This document shows positions 3,433 through 18,286 of a stretch of 64,000 bases of DNA, piece by piece. This stretch comes from an uncultured Poribacteria bacterium (GTDB taxonomy: Bacteria > Poribacteria > WGA-4E > WGA-3G). The stretch covers positions 2,816,001-2,880,000 of the forward strand of contig OX638351.1 in the NCBI GenBank assembly GCA_951813565.1, read 5' to 3'. The number at the start of each line of letters is the position of its first letter. Position 1 is the stretch's first letter. The notes under the pieces were generated by a model. It was not told where the DNA came from, ran no database searches, and worked only from the letters and a program-made list of their open reading frames with translations. A program made the position numbers and the translations under genes.

Positions 3433-4629
3433 TCAACCAAGCAATACGAGGTTATCCCGATGTATAATTTCATCGTAATCGTGATAACCGAGAATTTTTT
3501 CTATATCCTGCGTCTGCTTTCCAGCGAGTTTTGAAGTTTCTGTGGAGTTATAATTTATCAAGCCACGAGCGAATTCCACTCCATTTTCGGTGAAACACGA
3601 GACCGTATCACTGTAATTAAAATGTCCTTCGACGCGCCGAATACCTGCAGGCAATAAACTTTTTCCACCTTGCACAAGTGCGTCTCGTGCGCCATTGTCT
3701 ACAACAAGGTAACCTTTGGGTGGACGTGAATAGGCGATCCAGCGTTTACGTCCAGAGATACGAGTATTGGGAAGGAAAAGTGTGCCGAGCAGTTCGCCTT
3801 TAAGGAGGCGCGTAACTATAAGAGGCTCTCGACCATACGCGATAACTACCATTTCCCCAGAAGCAGTAACAATTTCGGAGGCTCGCAACTTGGTAATCAT
3901 GCCGCCAGTACCGCTGGTTGTGCCAGCTTGCCCCGCGGCTTTCCACATTTCCTCCGAAATAACGTTGACGGTGTGGATTAATTCCGAATCTGGATTTTGT
4001 CTCGGATCTTCTGTGAAAAAACCGTGCTGATCGGAGAGAATAACGAGGAGATCGGCTTGGACAAGGTTTGTTACGTAGGCTGAAAGTGTATCGTTATCGC
4101 CTACCTTAATTTCGTCTACAGCGACACTGTCGTTTTCATTAATAATAGGAATGGCATCAAGTTGAAGCAGCGCATGCAAAGCGTCATTCATACGGGTGTA
4201 ACGTTTCCTGTCGGAGAAATCATCCTGTGTGAGCAAATGCGTGCTGCACACTTGTTGATAGTGGCGGAAACGTTCTTCGTAAGCAGCCATCAATCGAATC
4301 TGTCCGACAGCAGCAGATGCTTGCAACTCGGGTAACGTCTGCGGTTTTGTGCTAAGACCGAGATAGGGCCACCCTGCCGCAATCGCTCCCGACGTGACCA
4401 AGATAACTTCAACTCCATTTTGTTTAACAGTCGCTAAATCGTGAACAAGACCATCAAGGGCAGATTCATTGATGCGCAGGTTGTCTGAAATGGTGCTACT
4501 ACCAACTTTTACGACAATGCGTTGGACATTAGATAAACATTCACGATCTCTAACCTGCTTATGTTGATCCATACCGTTGATTTGTCGGTGCGACTGTGTC
4601 TGAGTGAAAATCTCACCAGATTTTTCCAT
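3433..4629 (-). CDS. proB: Glutamate 5-kinase with PUA domain (start uncertain)
   Basis: RIVVKVGSS, PIINENDSV, GDNDTLSA, GTGGMITKL, SLLPAGI, IIHRDNLV. Confidence 0.97.
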   Translation of the reverse strand: MEKSGEIFTQTQSHRQINGMDQHKQVRDRECLSNVQRIVVKVGSSTISDNLRINESALDGLVHDLATVKQNGVEVILVTSGAIAAGWPYLGLSTKPQTLPELQASAAVGQIRLMAAYEERFRHYQQVCSTHLLTQDDFSDRKRYTRMNDALHALLQLDAIPIINENDSVAVDEIKVGDNDTLSAYVTNLVQADLLVILSDQHGFFTEDPRQNPDSELIHTVNVISEEMWKAAGQAGTTSGTGGMITKLRASEIVTASGEMVVIAYGREPLIVTRLLKGELLGTLFLPNTRISGRKRWIAYSRPPKGYLVVDNGARDALVQGGKSLLPAGIRRVEGHFNYSDTVSCFTENGVEFARGLINYNSTETSKLAGKQTQDIEKILGYHDYDEIIHRDNLVLLG

Positions 4630-11738: not shown

Positions 11739-12755
11739 TTAGGGATGTAACGCTGTTTTAACACCGCGTTGCGCGATAGCGTTATCAAAAGCTTCTAAAC
11801 CTTGTGAAATGGAAAACTGATCGGTTAGCAAAGGTTTGAAATTGATTGCTTCTTGTAGTAGGAGCTGGCGGGATTCTTGAAGGCTTGCTCGGGAAAATGC
11901 CCACGAAGCCATCAGTTTGTGTCCGGTATAGTGAAATTCTTCTAAGTTTATGCGAAGTTCCTCACCTTCCGGCGCAAGACCGAAAAAGTTGATACAACCG
12001 CCTTTGCGTATAACCTGAAAAGCGAGGTTAATCACTGACGTTTTATTTGTCGTAGCGGAGATGACGGTATCAACACCGCCGTGGGTGATTTCATGGAGAT
12101 GTGCAACATTGTCAGGAGAAATATCAAAAGCGGCATCGGCCCCGACAGTTTCTGCGACAGATCTGCGGTAGGGTAGAGGGTCCAGAACGTAGGTTGCTAA
12201 ACCTGCTCGTTTCGTCAATTGGGTGAACATCAACCCGATGGGACCAGCACCGAGGATGGCAACAGTGTTTTGGAAAATGGTTTCTTGCATCGCATTTAGG
12301 CAGCAGCCTAACGGTTCAAGGAAAAGTAGTTCTTCTGGTGGGATGGTGTCTGGCACTCGGATGAGTTTGCCCGTGTCTATGCCGTGTTTCGGCATCCGCA
12401 TGTATTCGGCGTAGCCGCCATCAATGTCGTGTCCGATACCTTCAATCGTATCGCAGTATTTGTCTTTGTCATTTCGGCAATGCACACAACTCCCGCACGA
12501 AAGCATCGGATTTACGGTGACCCGTTCGCCGACTTTTACTTCCGGATGCCGACTCTCAACGATTACACCTGCGAGTTCATGTCCCATCACAACAGGTGGT
12601 GAATAGTCTGATATATCGCCACGGAGCGCAGCAAGGTCAGATGCGCAGATACCGCACAACTCCATCTTGATAAGCACATCCCCGGCATTGAGTGTGGGAA
12701 TTGGTTTGTCTTGTATGCGTAACTGCTGAACTTTTTCAAAAACGATTGCTTTCAT
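11739..12755 (-). CDS. Zinc-dependent (MDR family) dehydrogenase
   Basis: MKAIV start, GICASD, GHE, CxxCxxC Zn site, GAGPIG. Confidence 0.92.
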   Translation of the reverse strand: MKAIVFEKVQQLRIQDKPIPTLNAGDVLIKMELCGICASDLAALRGDISDYSPPVVMGHELAGVIVESRHPEVKVGERVTVNPMLSCGSCVHCRNDKDKYCDTIEGIGHDIDGGYAEYMRMPKHGIDTGKLIRVPDTIPPEELLFLEPLGCCLNAMQETIFQNTVAILGAGPIGLMFTQLTKRAGLATYVLDPLPYRRSVAETVGADAAFDISPDNVAHLHEITHGGVDTVISATTNKTSVINLAFQVIRKGGCINFFGLAPEGEELRINLEEFHYTGHKLMASWAFSRASLQESRQLLLQEAINFKPLLTDQFSISQGLEAFDNAIAQRGVKTALHP

Positions 12756-12762
12756 ATACGTT

Positions 12763-14319
12763 CTACGCAACCAATGGGCAGTTTACGATGCTATAACTAT
12801 ATCCATCGCGCTTTTGAATTCTTCGGATTTCGGTAATATTTCCAGATTTTCTCGAATCTTTCTCTTCAGGTGCAAAGTATTCTACGCGAAGTTTACGAGG
12901 TTTGCCTACTGCGGTTTTATCAAAACAGTTGATTATCCCTTTCCATTTCCGATCTCGCTTTGTTATCTCAACGTAGTCAAACTTCGCAAAGCCATTTACA
13001 TGCGAAACCTTAGTTGATGGTTTGATGAAACCGGGTGCTTTCATGTCAAATATCTTGCCTACATTGTCGCGTCTACCATATCCTTTAGCTTCAATGATAG
13101 CAACTTGCAGCGACTTAGCTCGTTTCGGAACAATCGCAACAGACGCAGCATCATAATAATGCGTTTTCGGCAATCTGGCAAGATTCCGATGATGTGCTGT
13201 TTTTCCACCAGTGCCACTTATTATTGGGAGCCCTGTTGTTTTGAGTGTCTCAAACAGTTTCCACCGAATAGTGTTGATTGCTGCAGCATCAGAAAGACCC
13301 TTTTCAGATTTTCGGGCTGCTGCTTGGACCTTCTTTGCAAAATCAGTACCAAGCTTTTCTTCCAACTCGGCTCCGTGCAGTTTACCTTTCTTTTCGTTGC
13401 AGTCTTTACATGCCATCGTCAAGTTGCTCGGACGGTTATCTTCACGAACGGCTTTAGGTGCGATGTGTTCTACTTCTAAATGACGTTTGCCTTTTCCACA
13501 ATAAGCGCATTTTCTGCCAGTCAGTTCTAAAAGATATTCGCGTATCTCACGTCCCCATAAAGTTCCTTGTTGATATTCAATGCCATGTATACCAGGATTT
13601 TCCATCAACTGCATATCAAATTTCACCGTCTCAATTGCCAATTGTGTAATCGGGTAAATCTTACATAACCGTCGGGTCCAGGTCTCTAAATTGAAAACAC
13701 GGGACATCAAACTCGGTGCCACCCAACCATTATCGGCGACCCGTTGATGCACAACGCGAATGCGTCGCCAGCGTTTCTTTTGACGCTTGTTCGTTTTGGT
13801 GTCAGGTAAACGCTCCCAACGATACCGCTCGTCTAAAAACATCGCTTTTGACACGCGATTCAAGTCATTTTGAGATTTACTGGAATCCATTCCCTCTGGC
13901 ACTGAAGCACGTTCATATCTCCATCCGTTTTCTGTAAGAATTGGCACTTGACGTTTCCGATTTGCCCACCGAGCAGGACGATACCGTAGATTACGAGTTC
14001 TACGTCCTCTACGAAAGCCCGAACGTTTTTGAAGATTTCTTTTGATTTGCTGCCCACGGTGATGTAATTCCGCAGCATAGACTATATCCCCAGATTCAGA
14101 CACAATGGCGATTCCACTGATGCGTGATCCCGGGTCCCAACTCAACGTATACGGTTTTGTGACAATTTCCGATTCTGGAACTGCTTTCTTAAGAATAATC
14201 GTAAACGGGTATTTTCGCCATATTGCTGCTTCACCGCGTTTCAGTAGACGACGTGCTACAGCAGGATGACAAGGTTCTAAAGGGTTTTTGTCTGTATCAA
14301 TAACTGCTACTTTTGACAT
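12763..14319 (-). CDS. iscB: CRISPR-associated RNA-guided nuclease IscB with extra insertion after bridge helix
   Basis: PLMP-like N-term (PLEPCHPAVARRLL), RuvC-I WDPGS (D62), Arg-rich bridge helix, RuvC-II E230 (ETVKFD), HNH CAYC..EHI..N..CxxCN, RuvC-III H387/D390. Confidence 0.93.
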   Translation of the reverse strand: MSKVAVIDTDKNPLEPCHPAVARRLLKRGEAAIWRKYPFTIILKKAVPESEIVTKPYTLSWDPGSRISGIAIVSESGDIVYAAELHHRGQQIKRNLQKRSGFRRGRRTRNLRYRPARWANRKRQVPILTENGWRYERASVPEGMDSSKSQNDLNRVSKAMFLDERYRWERLPDTKTNKRQKKRWRRIRVVHQRVADNGWVAPSLMSRVFNLETWTRRLCKIYPITQLAIETVKFDMQLMENPGIHGIEYQQGTLWGREIREYLLELTGRKCAYCGKGKRHLEVEHIAPKAVREDNRPSNLTMACKDCNEKKGKLHGAELEEKLGTDFAKKVQAAARKSEKGLSDAAAINTIRWKLFETLKTTGLPIISGTGGKTAHHRNLARLPKTHYYDAASVAIVPKRAKSLQVAIIEAKGYGRRDNVGKIFDMKAPGFIKPSTKVSHVNGFAKFDYVEITKRDRKWKGIINCFDKTAVGKPRKLRVEYFAPEEKDSRKSGNITEIRRIQKRDGYSYSIVNCPLVA

Positions 14320-14330
14320 TTTTTATCCGT

Positions 14331-14580
14331 GGATGTTGAGATACCCGAAAGCACCTCAACATCCAAAGCTCGCCTTGCGGCGGTAATGTGAGCCTCGTCA
14401 ATGTTATTTCTGCTTTATAACAGGGTTGACAGCGTATTGTAAAGCTGTTTACATTGCCCCGACAGCGCTCCCGGCTGGCTCATGTACCTGGAGGTGTCTA
14501 TATCAGAAATAACGGATTTAATGTTTCCAACCCATAAAGGCTTGACTAGATACCACTTGGGCATGTTTTTTGTTGCAATT
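14331..14580 (-). ncRNA. omegaRNA/HEARO-like scaffold with 5' anti-repeat (tracrRNA-like)
   Basis: Minus strand carries HEARO-like blocks CGTTATTTCTG..GACACC..GCCAG..CTGTC..TAAACAG..CAGAAATAACATTGACGAGG..TTACC..CGCAAGGCG; anti-repeat 14549-14578; 3' hairpin 14331-14364. Confidence 0.8.
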
Positions 14581-14673
14581 TTTGCCGTCAACCTCCCAGC
14601 AAAAATGCAAGATTGGAGGTCGACTGCAAACTCTTAAGACTGACGCTTGACGCAGCTTGACTTTAAGTATAGG
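14581..14673. promoter_or_regulatory. Putative CRISPR leader with inverted repeat
   Basis: TTTGCCGTCAACCTCC..GGAGGTCGACTGCAAA palindrome next to the intact end of the array. Confidence 0.5.
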
Positions 14674-16445
14674 GTTGCAACTCAAACATGCCCAAGCGAT
14701 AACTGCTATCTTCAGCAAGTATCTGACCTTCCTTTTGGGCAAGTTGCAACTCAAACATGCCCAAGCGATAACCTTCAAACGTGTGCGAAAGGCGTTCAGC
14801 ATCTTTTTCGTTGCAACTCAAACATGCCCAAGCGATAACTCTGGTCTGCTGCTTCGTTTATAATGTCCTCAATAGCGTTGCAACTCAAACATGCCCAAGC
14901 GATAACTTATTTAAACGCATATCAAAAATGATAGCACTAAAAGTTGCAACTCAAACATGCCCAAGCGATAACTTGTTCAGCGGATATATCATCACTGGAT
15001 TTGACGCGTTGCAACTCAAACATGCCCAAGCGATAACACTATTCTATGAGACATTTGAGATAAAGCAAAAATTGTTGCAACTCAAACATGCCCAAGCGAT
15101 AACGTTTACCCCTCCGTTTTGCCTCACCAGTGACATCTACCGGTTGCAACTCAAACATGCCCAAGCGATAACTATGTGATGCCGCAATCTCCCAAGATGT
15201 TGGACTTAAGTTGCAACTCAAACATGCCCAAGCGATAACTTTCGATCCTGAAATACCATATGCTTGGGAGCGTGAGTTGCAACTCAAACATGCCCAAGCG
15301 ATAACGCGCGGACCGGCTTTGGTGCGTTCCGCTAATCCGTGATGTTGCAACTCAAACATGCCCAAGCGATAACTTCGGCACATACAACCCTGTAGCACCA
15401 CCTGTCTCGCGTTGCAACTCAAACATGCCCAAGCGATAACACAGAAGGCTTAGACGATTACATGAAACTCAAAAGTCGGTTGCAACTCAAACATGCCCAA
15501 GCGATAACCGAGAAGTAACGTGTGTTATCATTTTCATCTTTCCAGTTGCAACTCAAACATGCCCAAGCGATAACATGTAAAACACCCTTGACTGTCTCAG
15601 GCGTAACCAAGTTGCAACTCAAACATGCCCAAGCGATAACGAAGTACCAAGACCACGCTGCGCAAGATTGCCAGCAAAACGTTGCAACTCAAACATGCCC
15701 AAGCGATAACTTCGGCTGGGGTGATGAAGTATATCTTCAAGGAGTTAGTTGCAACTCAAACATGCCCAAGCGATAACATGGGCAATCGCAGTATCATCAA
15801 AACACTTGAGTTTGTTGCAACTCAAACATGCCCAAGCGATAACTCAGCTGTCCTTTTTCGTTTGCGATGTTGATGCCAAGTTGCAACTCAAACATGCCCA
15901 AGCGATAACGAAAATCGGGGATATAGTCGTAGCGCAAACAGAAGCGTTGCAACTCAAACATGCCCAAGCGATAACTGAGATTCTTTCTTGGGCAAATGAT
16001 GATAAAAATTCGGTTGCAACTCAAACATGCCCAAGCGATAACTCTACGGAGTCTGCACCTATAAATTGTGCGTAACGGTTGCAACTCAAACATGCCCAAG
16101 CGATAACAAAGATCGTCACCACAGGATTTAACAGCAAGGTCAAGGTTGCAACTCAAACATGCCCAAGCGATAACGTATTGGATTGCTCACGGGATTGTCC
16201 GATGCAACGCAGGTTGCAACTCAAACATGCCCAAGCGATAACCACCTCTGCTTTCACTGTAATTATTTTCTGTTTGGTGCGTTGCAACTCAAACATGCCC
16301 AAGCGATAACTCAAAACTTCGTTTAGCGACTTCTTTACTTCAACGCTATGTTGCAACTCAAACATGCCCAAGCGATAACCTATGAAAGCCATCGTTTTGA
16401 AAAAATCCATCAAGTTGCAACGCCAGCACGCTTAAGTGATATAAC
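14674..16445 (-). CRISPR. CRISPR array: 26 identical 30-bp repeats plus 1 degenerate repeat, 26 spacers of 34-40 nt
   Basis: + strand repeat GTTGCAACTCAAACATGCCCAAGCGATAAC; degenerate copy at 16414-16445; strand inferred from anti-repeat G-U pairing. Confidence 0.98.
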
Positions 16446-16449
16446 ATAC

Positions 16450-17478
16450 TTACTCAAACTCATAAGGCACTGTTTCGGACTGATGTGTCTTTGAGGATTT
16501 TTCTGCCAAATCCATGATGGCAATGACACGGCGAGCGGACTCAGGTGTCACGAGCAATGGGGTGCCATCGTTCAAATGCGCAACTATATTTTCATAGTAT
16601 CTGGGTCCGGGTCTTCCGTGATGACCTACTTTCTGTTCCTTCGGATGCCCTTCAACTTCGGATAAAACATGATATTGTCCGCCTTCAGAAACAATAGATC
16701 CGTGTGAACCGAGCATTTTCCATTTCGGTCCGCCGACCTTCGCGATGTTAGACATCTGGATGTTTGCTGACGCACCATCCGCAACAAATTCCCCTTCTGC
16801 AAATCGAATAATAGCTTGCACGTGGTCTTCGTTGGTAATGTCTTTCCAAACAAGGTTCGGCTGAAAGAAGCCGGTGACGTTAATCATGGGTGCTTCAAGA
16901 ATGTTAAGCAGCCAGTCAAGGAAGTGTGCGCCCCAGTCATAGAATTGTCCGCCAGAAATGGCTTTGACGCTGCGCCACCAATTCGGGTTCGGTCTGCCGT
17001 AGCCGCCACCCCACATCTCGGCACTATAGACTTTTCCGATGACACCAGACTGAACAAGTTCGCGGAGCGTCCAGAAGTCTGCGTCCCAACGGCGGTTGTG
17101 GTGAACTGATAGCATCACATCATTTTCTTTTGCAGCGGTAATCATTTCCGTTGCTTCTGCAATTGTGACGCACATCGGTTTTTCAACGACAACGTGTTTA
17201 CCTGCATTGTGGGCTGCCACAGTCGGATCGCAGTGTAGACTGTGCGGCAGGACGTTCGCGACGAGATCAACATCTTCGTCTGCTACGAGGTCTTCAACGG
17301 AGTTGTAAGTTCGGACGTCGGGAAAATCCTGTTTGGCTGCCTTTGTCCGCTCTGGATCAATGTCGCACACTGCAACGCATGTGATGCCTTCTGTGCCTTG
17401 CATCATATTTGCGTGTGCTTTACCCATATTAAATGCTGCCCCATAACCGAGAACAGCACCTTTAATAATATCTGCCAT
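16450..17478 (-). CDS. Gfo/Idh/MocA family oxidoreductase
   Basis: AVLGYG, AGKHVVVEKP, HNRRWDADF, DWGAHFLD. Confidence 0.93.
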   Translation of the reverse strand: MADIIKGAVLGYGAAFNMGKAHANMMQGTEGITCVAVCDIDPERTKAAKQDFPDVRTYNSVEDLVADEDVDLVANVLPHSLHCDPTVAAHNAGKHVVVEKPMCVTIAEATEMITAAKENDVMLSVHHNRRWDADFWTLRELVQSGVIGKVYSAEMWGGGYGRPNPNWWRSVKAISGGQFYDWGAHFLDWLLNILEAPMINVTGFFQPNLVWKDITNEDHVQAIIRFAEGEFVADGASANIQMSNIAKVGGPKWKMLGSHGSIVSEGGQYHVLSEVEGHPKEQKVGHHGRPGPRYYENIVAHLNDGTPLLVTPESARRVIAIMDLAEKSSKTHQSETVPYEFE

Positions 17479-18286
17479 TATATGTTTGGCTCCTTCTGTG
17501 CGTGGGGTGTTACCCCGATTTCAAATTTTATGAATATCTTATTATAGCATAGATGCGGGGGTGTGTCAAAAATTAAATTGAACAAGGCAGAGGCATTCAA
17601 TTTTCGTCTAATTATCCGTTTTAGTTGAAAAGTTGGGACCTAAAAATCGTTCCGAGATGCACGAATTGATTGTATTTTTCTTCTCATTTTATTGGAATCA
17701 TCTCCTTAAAAAGTTACCATACGGTAACTTTTTTCATACCGTGGTAACTTTTTGAAATTCTCTATAAACTCAGTATATGTAAGGGTTTATAGACATTTTA
17801 TTTAAATTTTATATTTTTCATCTGCGTTGATGAACACAGGTTTCCTTTTGCTGGAGATATTTTATTTTCCTAAGTTTTGCGTTGTCGTCTTGGCATTAGA
17901 GAGTTACTTTCGATTTTCGGTGTGTTTGGGGATCGGTTTTCTCTTTTCATACTGATATTATACCAAGTTCTATGGGGTGATCAGAAGTTTTCGTGGTGTT
18001 AAGAACAATAGATATCCAATAGATTCACAATAAGTTTGCAGGAAAAGTTGGGGTTGATACGTTCTTTTTGCATCTTGGATGAGTGTGTTTTTTGTTGTCA
18101 GCATGGCGGTTGACGCGATTTTTTGCAGTTTTTGTAAAGGAAGAAATTATTGGAGAATTGAATGGCTTTGTGGAAAAGGTCTTAAAATTGACAAACGCTT
18201 AGAGATAGTCTAAACTATTACCACTTTTTAACACGCTTTTACCATAAAGACATATCTTCGGATTAAGTAGTAGATAGGAGGCAACG

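Follow-up and report, generated by a model that had tools for sequence, protein, structure and literature searches.

The locus described here lies in a 64,000-nt stretch of the genome of an uncultured Poribacteria bacterium (GCA_951813565.1, contig OX638351.1:2,816,001-2,880,000), which is referred to below as the window and whose numbering is used for all positions. An IscB-CRISPR module is situated between two metabolic genes of this sponge-associated bacterium, and all genes of the region are encoded on the minus strand. On one side lies a gene for a Gfo/Idh/MocA oxidoreductase (Gfo, 16450-17478) and on the other a gene of the Zn-dependent alcohol dehydrogenase family (ADH, 11739-12755, start codon at 12755-12753), both assigned via Pfam, the latter by its ADH_N and ADH_zinc_N domains. 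Read along the minus strand, Gfo is followed by 4 bases, a degenerate repeat, spacer 26, the rest of the CRISPR array, a gap of 95 nt, an RNA scaffold, iscB and, after 7 further bases, the ATG of ADH.

The iscB gene (12763-14319, minus strand) encodes a protein of 518 amino acids with an RRXRR/PLMP-RuvC N-terminus and an HNH domain (Pfam E-values of 3e-60 for RRXRR and 2e-9 for HNH). A search of PDB sequences aligned it to solved IscB structures, namely TbaIscB (E 4e-35) and OgeuIscB (E 5e-19), and both the HNH and the RuvC nuclease motifs are visible in these alignments. The omega RNA/tracrRNA scaffold (14383-14624, minus strand) was identified with the Rfam model HEARO (RF02033, E 1e-10), the match spanning the full length of the model with 56 bits, under the gathering score of 83. 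An anti-repeat is found at the start of the scaffold, at about 14548-14577 on the minus strand, and its duplex with the array repeat was calculated at -38.3 kcal/mol, compared to -16.0 +/- 3.0 kcal/mol for 200 shuffled repeats.

A repeat finder delimited the array proper (14674-16379, minus strand) with 26 identical 30-nt repeats and spacers 1 to 25. Spacer 26 (16380-16413, minus strand), the one most distant from iscB, and a degenerate terminal repeat of 32 nt (16414-16445, minus strand) complete it, giving 26 spacers of 34-40 nt, 26 perfect repeats and one degenerate copy. The latter differs from the others by 9 mismatches without gaps, or by 7 mismatches and a 2-nt insertion, and its duplex with the tracrRNA reaches only -23.4 kcal/mol. 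Since the crRNA format on the minus strand is spacer then repeat, the decayed repeat flanks spacer 26 on the side which is not needed for pairing with the tracrRNA, and a perfect repeat is present on the 3' side of this spacer. The array repeat was absent elsewhere in the genome in a scan at up to 8 mismatches. One contig of the public sequencing run X1 joins position 14479 to 14872 and omits the tracr-proximal end of the array, which could be an array variant or an assembly artefact.

By these sequence features, the module is a CRISPR-associated IscB system, of a kind already described. According to the partial text of PMC12660989, DelIscB, given there as the CRISPR-associated IscB of Altae-Tran et al. 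2021, likewise has a small IscB with RRXRR/RuvC and HNH, an upstream non-coding RNA with repeat, anti-repeat and omega-like scaffold, and a CRISPR array with no adjacent cas1/cas2, the likeness being one of architecture. The same text reports a measured TAM of NAC and a 16-nt guide for DelIscB. A spacer matching the flank of the module, as described below, is a difference between the two systems, in so far as the partial text of PMC12660989 makes no mention of one for DelIscB.

Upstream of Gfo, a promoter scan detected a perfect sigma-70-like promoter (17569-17541, minus strand). The hairpin usually found downstream of Gfo is missing at the occupied locus according to the intergenic comparison, and a scan of the locus yielded no terminator between the Gfo promoter and ADH. 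As judged from these signals, transcripts starting at the Gfo promoter probably read through into the module. The region upstream of Gfo (17552-18000) displayed a very high summed contig depth, up to 660, in all four public runs of the species, and a joint omitting 17779-17949 was present in the same four runs; this region resembles a repeated or variable element.

Comparison with contigs of the same species defined an inserted segment of 3694 bases (12757-16450) that is absent from empty alleles. Its sole gene is iscB, and no adaptation genes are located within the module. The cas1/cas2 genes of this genome are found at 1.20 and 3.99 Mb, near two further CRISPR arrays of 48 and 54 repeats that are unrelated to those of the module (G000:C1, 1198128-1201310 and 3992477-3996454). 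The letters GTAT occur at both junctions of the module (16450 and 12757).

Of 61 related genomes, 58 have a single copy of the ADH ortholog, and the best 29 of its matches were taken as the set of sister-species loci. In all of these best 29, ADH immediately follows Gfo and IscB is absent from the interval, the intergenic region being 76-516 nt long and containing a conserved hairpin; the two neighbouring-genus loci that extend far enough upstream have this gene order too. Homology with six sister species stops at 12756-12758 and restarts at 16447-16451, so the module replaces the entire Gfo-ADH intergenic region. An identity profile against these six species revealed no obvious imported patch in the flanks, and the identity of ADH to the sister species, about 86%, is like that of its surroundings. 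In several sister species (L026, L027, L042, L025) the Gfo-ADH intergenic region holds a REP/MITE-like palindrome with the core GTCGGGAATCGGAGTTCCCTCCTACA, and an element with the same palindromic core was also observed at the distal edge of the array of genome G150 (L086).

Empty alleles are present within the species as well. Contigs from three of the four public runs (X4, X8 and X9) join position 12756 to 16451 via 79 other letters; on the ADH side, those of X8 and X9 have 4-5 differences in about 1.7 kb. Only the occupied form was found in X1, while X4 holds both (record 11 occupied, record 12 empty), on flanks that are identical over 12402-12746 and 16451-16987. The run evidence consists of assembled contigs, and parts of the array have no contig cover in X4, X8 and X9. 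Within one species, natural populations are thus polymorphic for presence and absence of the module, and the two forms occur together in a single run, which gives no sign of a sweep. The occupied allele differs from the empty ones of the same species in the last base of the Gfo stop codon and at position -2 of the ADH start codon. Among 40 genomes of the genus, IscB was found in that of the window alone, with no second occupied lineage seen, and scans of metagenome contigs gave no matches for the array repeat or for the first 30 nt of the resident ADH.

The original prediction had singled out the terminal spacer as a candidate homing guide, on account of an alignment with 6 mismatches and 1 gap to the start of ADH. 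This alignment was reproduced when spacer 26 was aligned semi-globally to both strands of the whole genome (5,426,982 bases). The best non-self match is at 12723-12757, with an edit distance of 7 (the same 6 mismatches and 1 gap), and the next best, at distance 8, is a single unrelated site. The other 25 spacers, used as internal controls in the same genome, had best non-self distances of 9-11, which speaks for the significance of the match. The protospacer-like site comprises ADH codons 1-11 and 2 upstream bases. Spacer 26 is an inverted copy of this ADH start: the plus strand of the site carries the guide sequence and is the non-target strand, and the guide is antisense to ADH from -2 to +32. 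With a missing T put back into a T-run, the spacer translates as MKAIVFEKIHQ, compared to MKAIVFEKVQQ in the resident gene. The missing T is also present as a gap in the run contigs, since the module junctions in X1 records 2 and 3 and X4 record 11 have no differences from the window.

The match site ends 1-2 nt from the module boundary, and the chance of a best match falling within 10 nt on either side of either boundary was estimated at about 8e-6 per spacer. A chance origin of the match is excluded. Because the crRNA, the tracrRNA and iscB are all on the minus strand, as shown by the HEARO match, the anti-repeat and the gene itself, the TAM side of the site (12758 onward, the iscB stop region) faces the junction, and the 3' end of guide 26 abuts the iscB stop, in agreement with the arrangement originally proposed. 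By analogy with Cas9, cleavage 3 nt away from the TAM is predicted within the ATG, at a distance of 2-3 nt from the junction.

One explanation of this position is that spacer 26 is a scar of the past that no longer has a function and derives from DNA of the insertion site or its vicinity. It may have been taken up at the founding of the module at this site, for example when a self-inflicted break at the ADH start was repaired by capture of the module, or later, by uptake from the region proximal to the array, which is reportedly a hot spot for spacer uptake. Its survival would then be owed only to the loss of the TAM and the accumulation of mismatches. The 7 differences from the resident allele, a 1-nt deletion among them, agree with this, and cas1/cas2 of the two other CRISPR-Cas loci might load spacers in trans. 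The GTAT at both junctions would fit end joining, and the loss of the whole 79-nt intergenic region is what resection would produce. The case is also a single one, related loci being without such a spacer. However, a random protospacer proximal to the array would seldom have its end no more than 2 nt from the junction and also be turned towards it, and the 19 TAM-proximal nucleotides of the guide have stayed intact while the neighbouring repeat decayed. The similarity of the spacer to alleles of other species, described next, also argues against a scar, and taken as a whole, in both versions, this explanation is considered unlikely, though not negligible.

When spacer 26 was compared to the best 29 sister alleles, its distance was 4 in four loci and 5 in four others, and 14 of these 29 alleles were closer to it than the resident one (distance 7). 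An allele of a neighbouring genus (G158) was closer still, at distance 3; across the 32 coding bases only the gap in the T-run and one base differ. All 3 differences from the best alleles are located within the 15 distal bases of the spacer, which are probably not used, by analogy with Cas9 and with the 16-nt guide of DelIscB. Over the 19 TAM-proximal bases of the guide, three of the best 29 sister alleles are perfect matches, and positions 1 and 11 are mismatched in the resident allele. The empty contigs of the same species are identical to the resident allele over 12723-12756 and therefore keep the mismatch at guide position 11 (GCC/GCA), and at guide position 1, the -2 base, they differ from it. 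These comparisons bear out two suppositions of the earlier analysis, namely that alleles without the module exist (found in all of the best 29 sister loci and in contigs of three of the four same-species runs) and that the spacer fits orthologous alleles better than the resident one (best distance 4 among the sister alleles, 3 in the neighbouring genus). For the scar they present a difficulty: the resident GCA/GTT allele is common to the nearest species (G006) and the same-species empty alleles, so that a capture from the host chromosome would need to predate those species splits, and the spacer is nearer to alleles of other species (distance 3-4) than to this allele of the resident lineage.

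A spacer resembling foreign alleles could also be an ordinary immunity spacer, acquired from foreign DNA with an ADH homolog, such as a plasmid, a phage or the chromosome of a relative entering via transformation. Given the high conservation of the ADH start across two genera, the DNA of relatives would supply such a spacer, and the other spacers of the array are ordinary. Its position beside the resident ADH would then be a coincidence or the outcome of a filter against autoimmunity. A protospacer that ends exactly at the module boundary and faces it is nevertheless very unlikely by chance, and no viral or plasmid-like source was found in INPHARED with the whole array or in IMG/VR with a 24-mer of spacer 26. 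No phage sequence or genomic paralog that fits spacer 26 better than the ADH start was obtained from the genome, INPHARED or IMG/VR searches, as the original prediction presumed. For spacer 26 in particular, ordinary immunity is regarded as improbable.

For spacer 4 (14907-14942, minus strand), by comparison, a viral target was identified. It matches 36/36 to an IMG/VR viral contig (L142, a UViG of 45.8 kb) and 36/36 to a phage-like contig in the MAG of a related bacterium (G148:C3:48497-48532), with a baseplate match near the protospacer. The spacer-4 protospacer is also found, together with its viral flanks, at loose ends of contigs in run X1, which places the targeted virus alongside the host. 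In other respects the array resembles a defence array, in use against a virus. Among the spacers tried, only spacer 4 matched: IMG/VR scans with 24-mers of spacers 1, 2, 3, 6 and 26 gave no matches, the INPHARED phage search with the whole array was negative, and spacer 6, with up to 3 mismatches allowed, found only itself among 176 genomes of the phylum. Neither the 80-kb phage-like G148 contig nor the IMG/VR record was matched by any other spacer from 10 IscB-associated arrays. Partial matches of 20-25 nt for spacer 18 in many genomes were rejected as chance matches in conserved genes.

The 3' flank of the spacer-4 protospacer is TG[C/G]TAGAGTTGT (also written TG[C/G]TAGAG), and the TAM basis is this one protospacer in two variants, which gives no consensus. 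The flanks at empty junctions (AGAGAGTT, AGGATGGT, AGAGGTGG and others) share with it only the G at position 2, and the flank of the occupied allele (ACGTTCTA) shares one position, the T at 4. A GAGTT motif common to the viral flank and the region upstream of ADH was rejected as TAM evidence, the registers being different.

The occupied flank bears on another explanation, in which spacer 26 is a regulatory guide. The mismatched crRNA-26 would direct IscB to bind without cutting at the ADH start, or act there as antisense RNA, and tune the read-through expression of ADH. Cas9 with scaRNA or with a long tracrRNA is an analogue of such a guide. The antisense orientation across the ADH translation start (-2 to +32) suits this role, the partial complementarity (28/35) is typical of such regulators, and ADH has no upstream region of its own, starting 7 nt after the iscB stop with no terminator between. 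Binding to DNA, however, needs a TAM, and the occupied flank has little in common with the viral one. Moreover, regulation leaves unexplained why the spacer matches foreign alleles better than the gene supposedly regulated, and no related module shows such a spacer; we assign regulation a low probability.

In the phylum, relatives of IscB are encoded in 23 of 176 genomes, and an array is located upstream of iscB in 9 of 15 related loci examined. Together with that of the window, this gives ten arrays. All have a perfect repeat at the tracr-proximal end, and seven, the window's included, have a degenerate one at the end distal to iscB. One distal spacer is common to two orthologous arrays. These degenerate distal repeats and the shared distal spacer indicate that the distal end is the old end and spacer 26 the oldest spacer. 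The related modules occupy varied sites: four species have theirs after FmdA and two in a TIR/DUF5131 neighbourhood, and IS1 is among the other neighbours. They are often co-oriented behind a gene.

In the nine related IscB-CRISPR loci, no spacer was found to match its own flanks (best distances 8-12), and no spacer of the four arrays at the FmdA site matched any of 26 empty FmdA sites (best 11/36). From these negative searches, the flank-matching spacer appears peculiar to the module of the window. The proposal of a homing guide was thus upheld in part: the empty alleles, the better fit to other alleles and the geometry agree with it, and the related loci, none of which has such a spacer, do not. 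As for the proposed cutting of empty alleles, such alleles do exist in the species but retain at least the mismatch at guide position 11.

Some further observations were made in the related genomes. Solitary copies of the array repeat, with 1 mismatch each, were noticed in two genera (G035:C78, about 4513-4547, L107/L124; G129:C52, about 12058-12095, L106/L125), in genomes where the IscB search found nothing. Both copies share one conserved intergenic context, in which about 60 nt of upstream sequence are conserved as well; they may be remnants of a module since lost, or repeat units that occur singly. The array of the closest relative (G152, with an IscB 73-75% identical) holds one spacer twice (L016, 5004-5044 and 5138-5178). 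The reverse complement of its terminal spacer resembles a ribosome-binding site and ATG, and this spacer had no other match in the G152 genome at up to 3 mismatches.

The reading that we prefer is that spacer 26 is a junction-specific guide, for homing or retention, that biases inheritance of the module, and we give it about an even chance of being correct. Spacer 26, with its perfect 3' repeat able to pair with the tracr/omega RNA, would be a crRNA guide in working format and would specify the unoccupied Gfo-ADH junction by base-pairing with the ADH start. The TAM would sit in the short intergenic stretch immediately preceding the ATG. The occupied allele has the module in place of this stretch, which would spare the host copy, and empty copies would keep target and TAM together. 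Consequently, the module would cut empty alleles in incoming homologous DNA, and also those arising where an empty allele had replaced it. Such cutting would bias inheritance to the occupied allele, as homing, retention or both. A plausible origin without design would be that, of the spacers acquired from homologous foreign DNA, only those whose target and TAM are interrupted in the host escape autoimmunity.

The geometry, as read from the sequence, is exactly that which would be needed to cut an empty site and spare an occupied one. The 19 TAM-proximal bases, intact relative to three of the best 29 sister alleles beside a repeat decayed at 9 of 30 positions, also support a junction guide, as do the empty alleles, found in X4 together with the occupied form, and the better fit to foreign alleles. 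Activity of the module is likely in view of its nuclease motifs, the viral target of spacer 4 and the lack of a terminator between the Gfo promoter and ADH. Holding this reading back is the fact that the spacer is a single instance in the loci of the phylum examined; against it stand the position-11 mismatch to the same-species empty alleles and the coexistence of both forms.

Several known systems share features with a junction-specific guide. According to the partial text of Meers et al. (bioRxiv 10.1101/2023.03.14.532601), IscB and TnpB carried by IS200/IS605 elements target donor joints, so that there, as proposed here, the guide specifies the site without the element, and these elements are co-oriented behind an upstream gene, as is the module of the window. 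In IS200/IS605 the element separates target and TAM; here the target abuts the module with its TAM side facing it, the TAM being judged from one known protospacer. The same partial text has the guide transcribed from the flank next to the omega RNA, whereas spacer 26 is inverted and 1.8 kb from the scaffold. In those elements TnpA creates the empty site, while the 3.7-kb segment has iscB as its only ORF, with no tnpA or transposon ends seen in it, and simple loss of the module would not restore the TAM.

In I-F3 CASTs, as far as the partial text of PMC9723613 covers them, mismatched self-targeting spacers lie beside atypical repeats, and the module of the window similarly has a self-targeting spacer at the array end, an atypical repeat and a match with mismatches to the attachment site. 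I-F3 CASTs, however, are nuclease-deficient and insert with Tn7 proteins (TnsABC, TniQ), whereas the segment described here is without Tn7-like transposition genes or Cascade and its only protein is a nuclease with intact motifs, and insertion would need break repair.

Homing endonuclease genes place a nuclease gene inside its own recognition site and bias inheritance at their own sites. With these the module has in common its location in a conserved gene region and the coexistence of occupied and empty alleles; empty alleles with the target, a prerequisite for this type of homing, exist in the population (X4, X8, X9). In contrast to them, the module would recognise its site by a replaceable RNA guide and carries 25 other guides. 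Going further, a nuclease-active module could be an RNA-guided homing element, a natural bacterial 'gene drive', with the empty-site guide as founding spacer of an otherwise antiviral array. We offer this only tentatively and consider it more doubtful than not.

On the path from the OMEGA nucleases of transposons to Cas9, CRISPR-associated IscB is seen as an intermediate stage, and it is an open question how a selfish, flank-reading guide system became array-based. The module joins a virus-targeting spacer, an oldest spacer for its own insertion site and a presence/absence polymorphism, and the defined pair of occupied and empty alleles makes the question of origin testable. A literature search found no nuclease-type CRISPR system with a homing or retention spacer; if guide 26 is active, the module would apparently be the first known case. 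If the gene drive interpretation is true, the module would represent an extant transitional form, with the selfish guide that OMEGA transposons derive from their flank on one side and CRISPR immunity on the other, and would indicate that break and repair without a transposase can spread a defence module site-specifically among related symbiont species.
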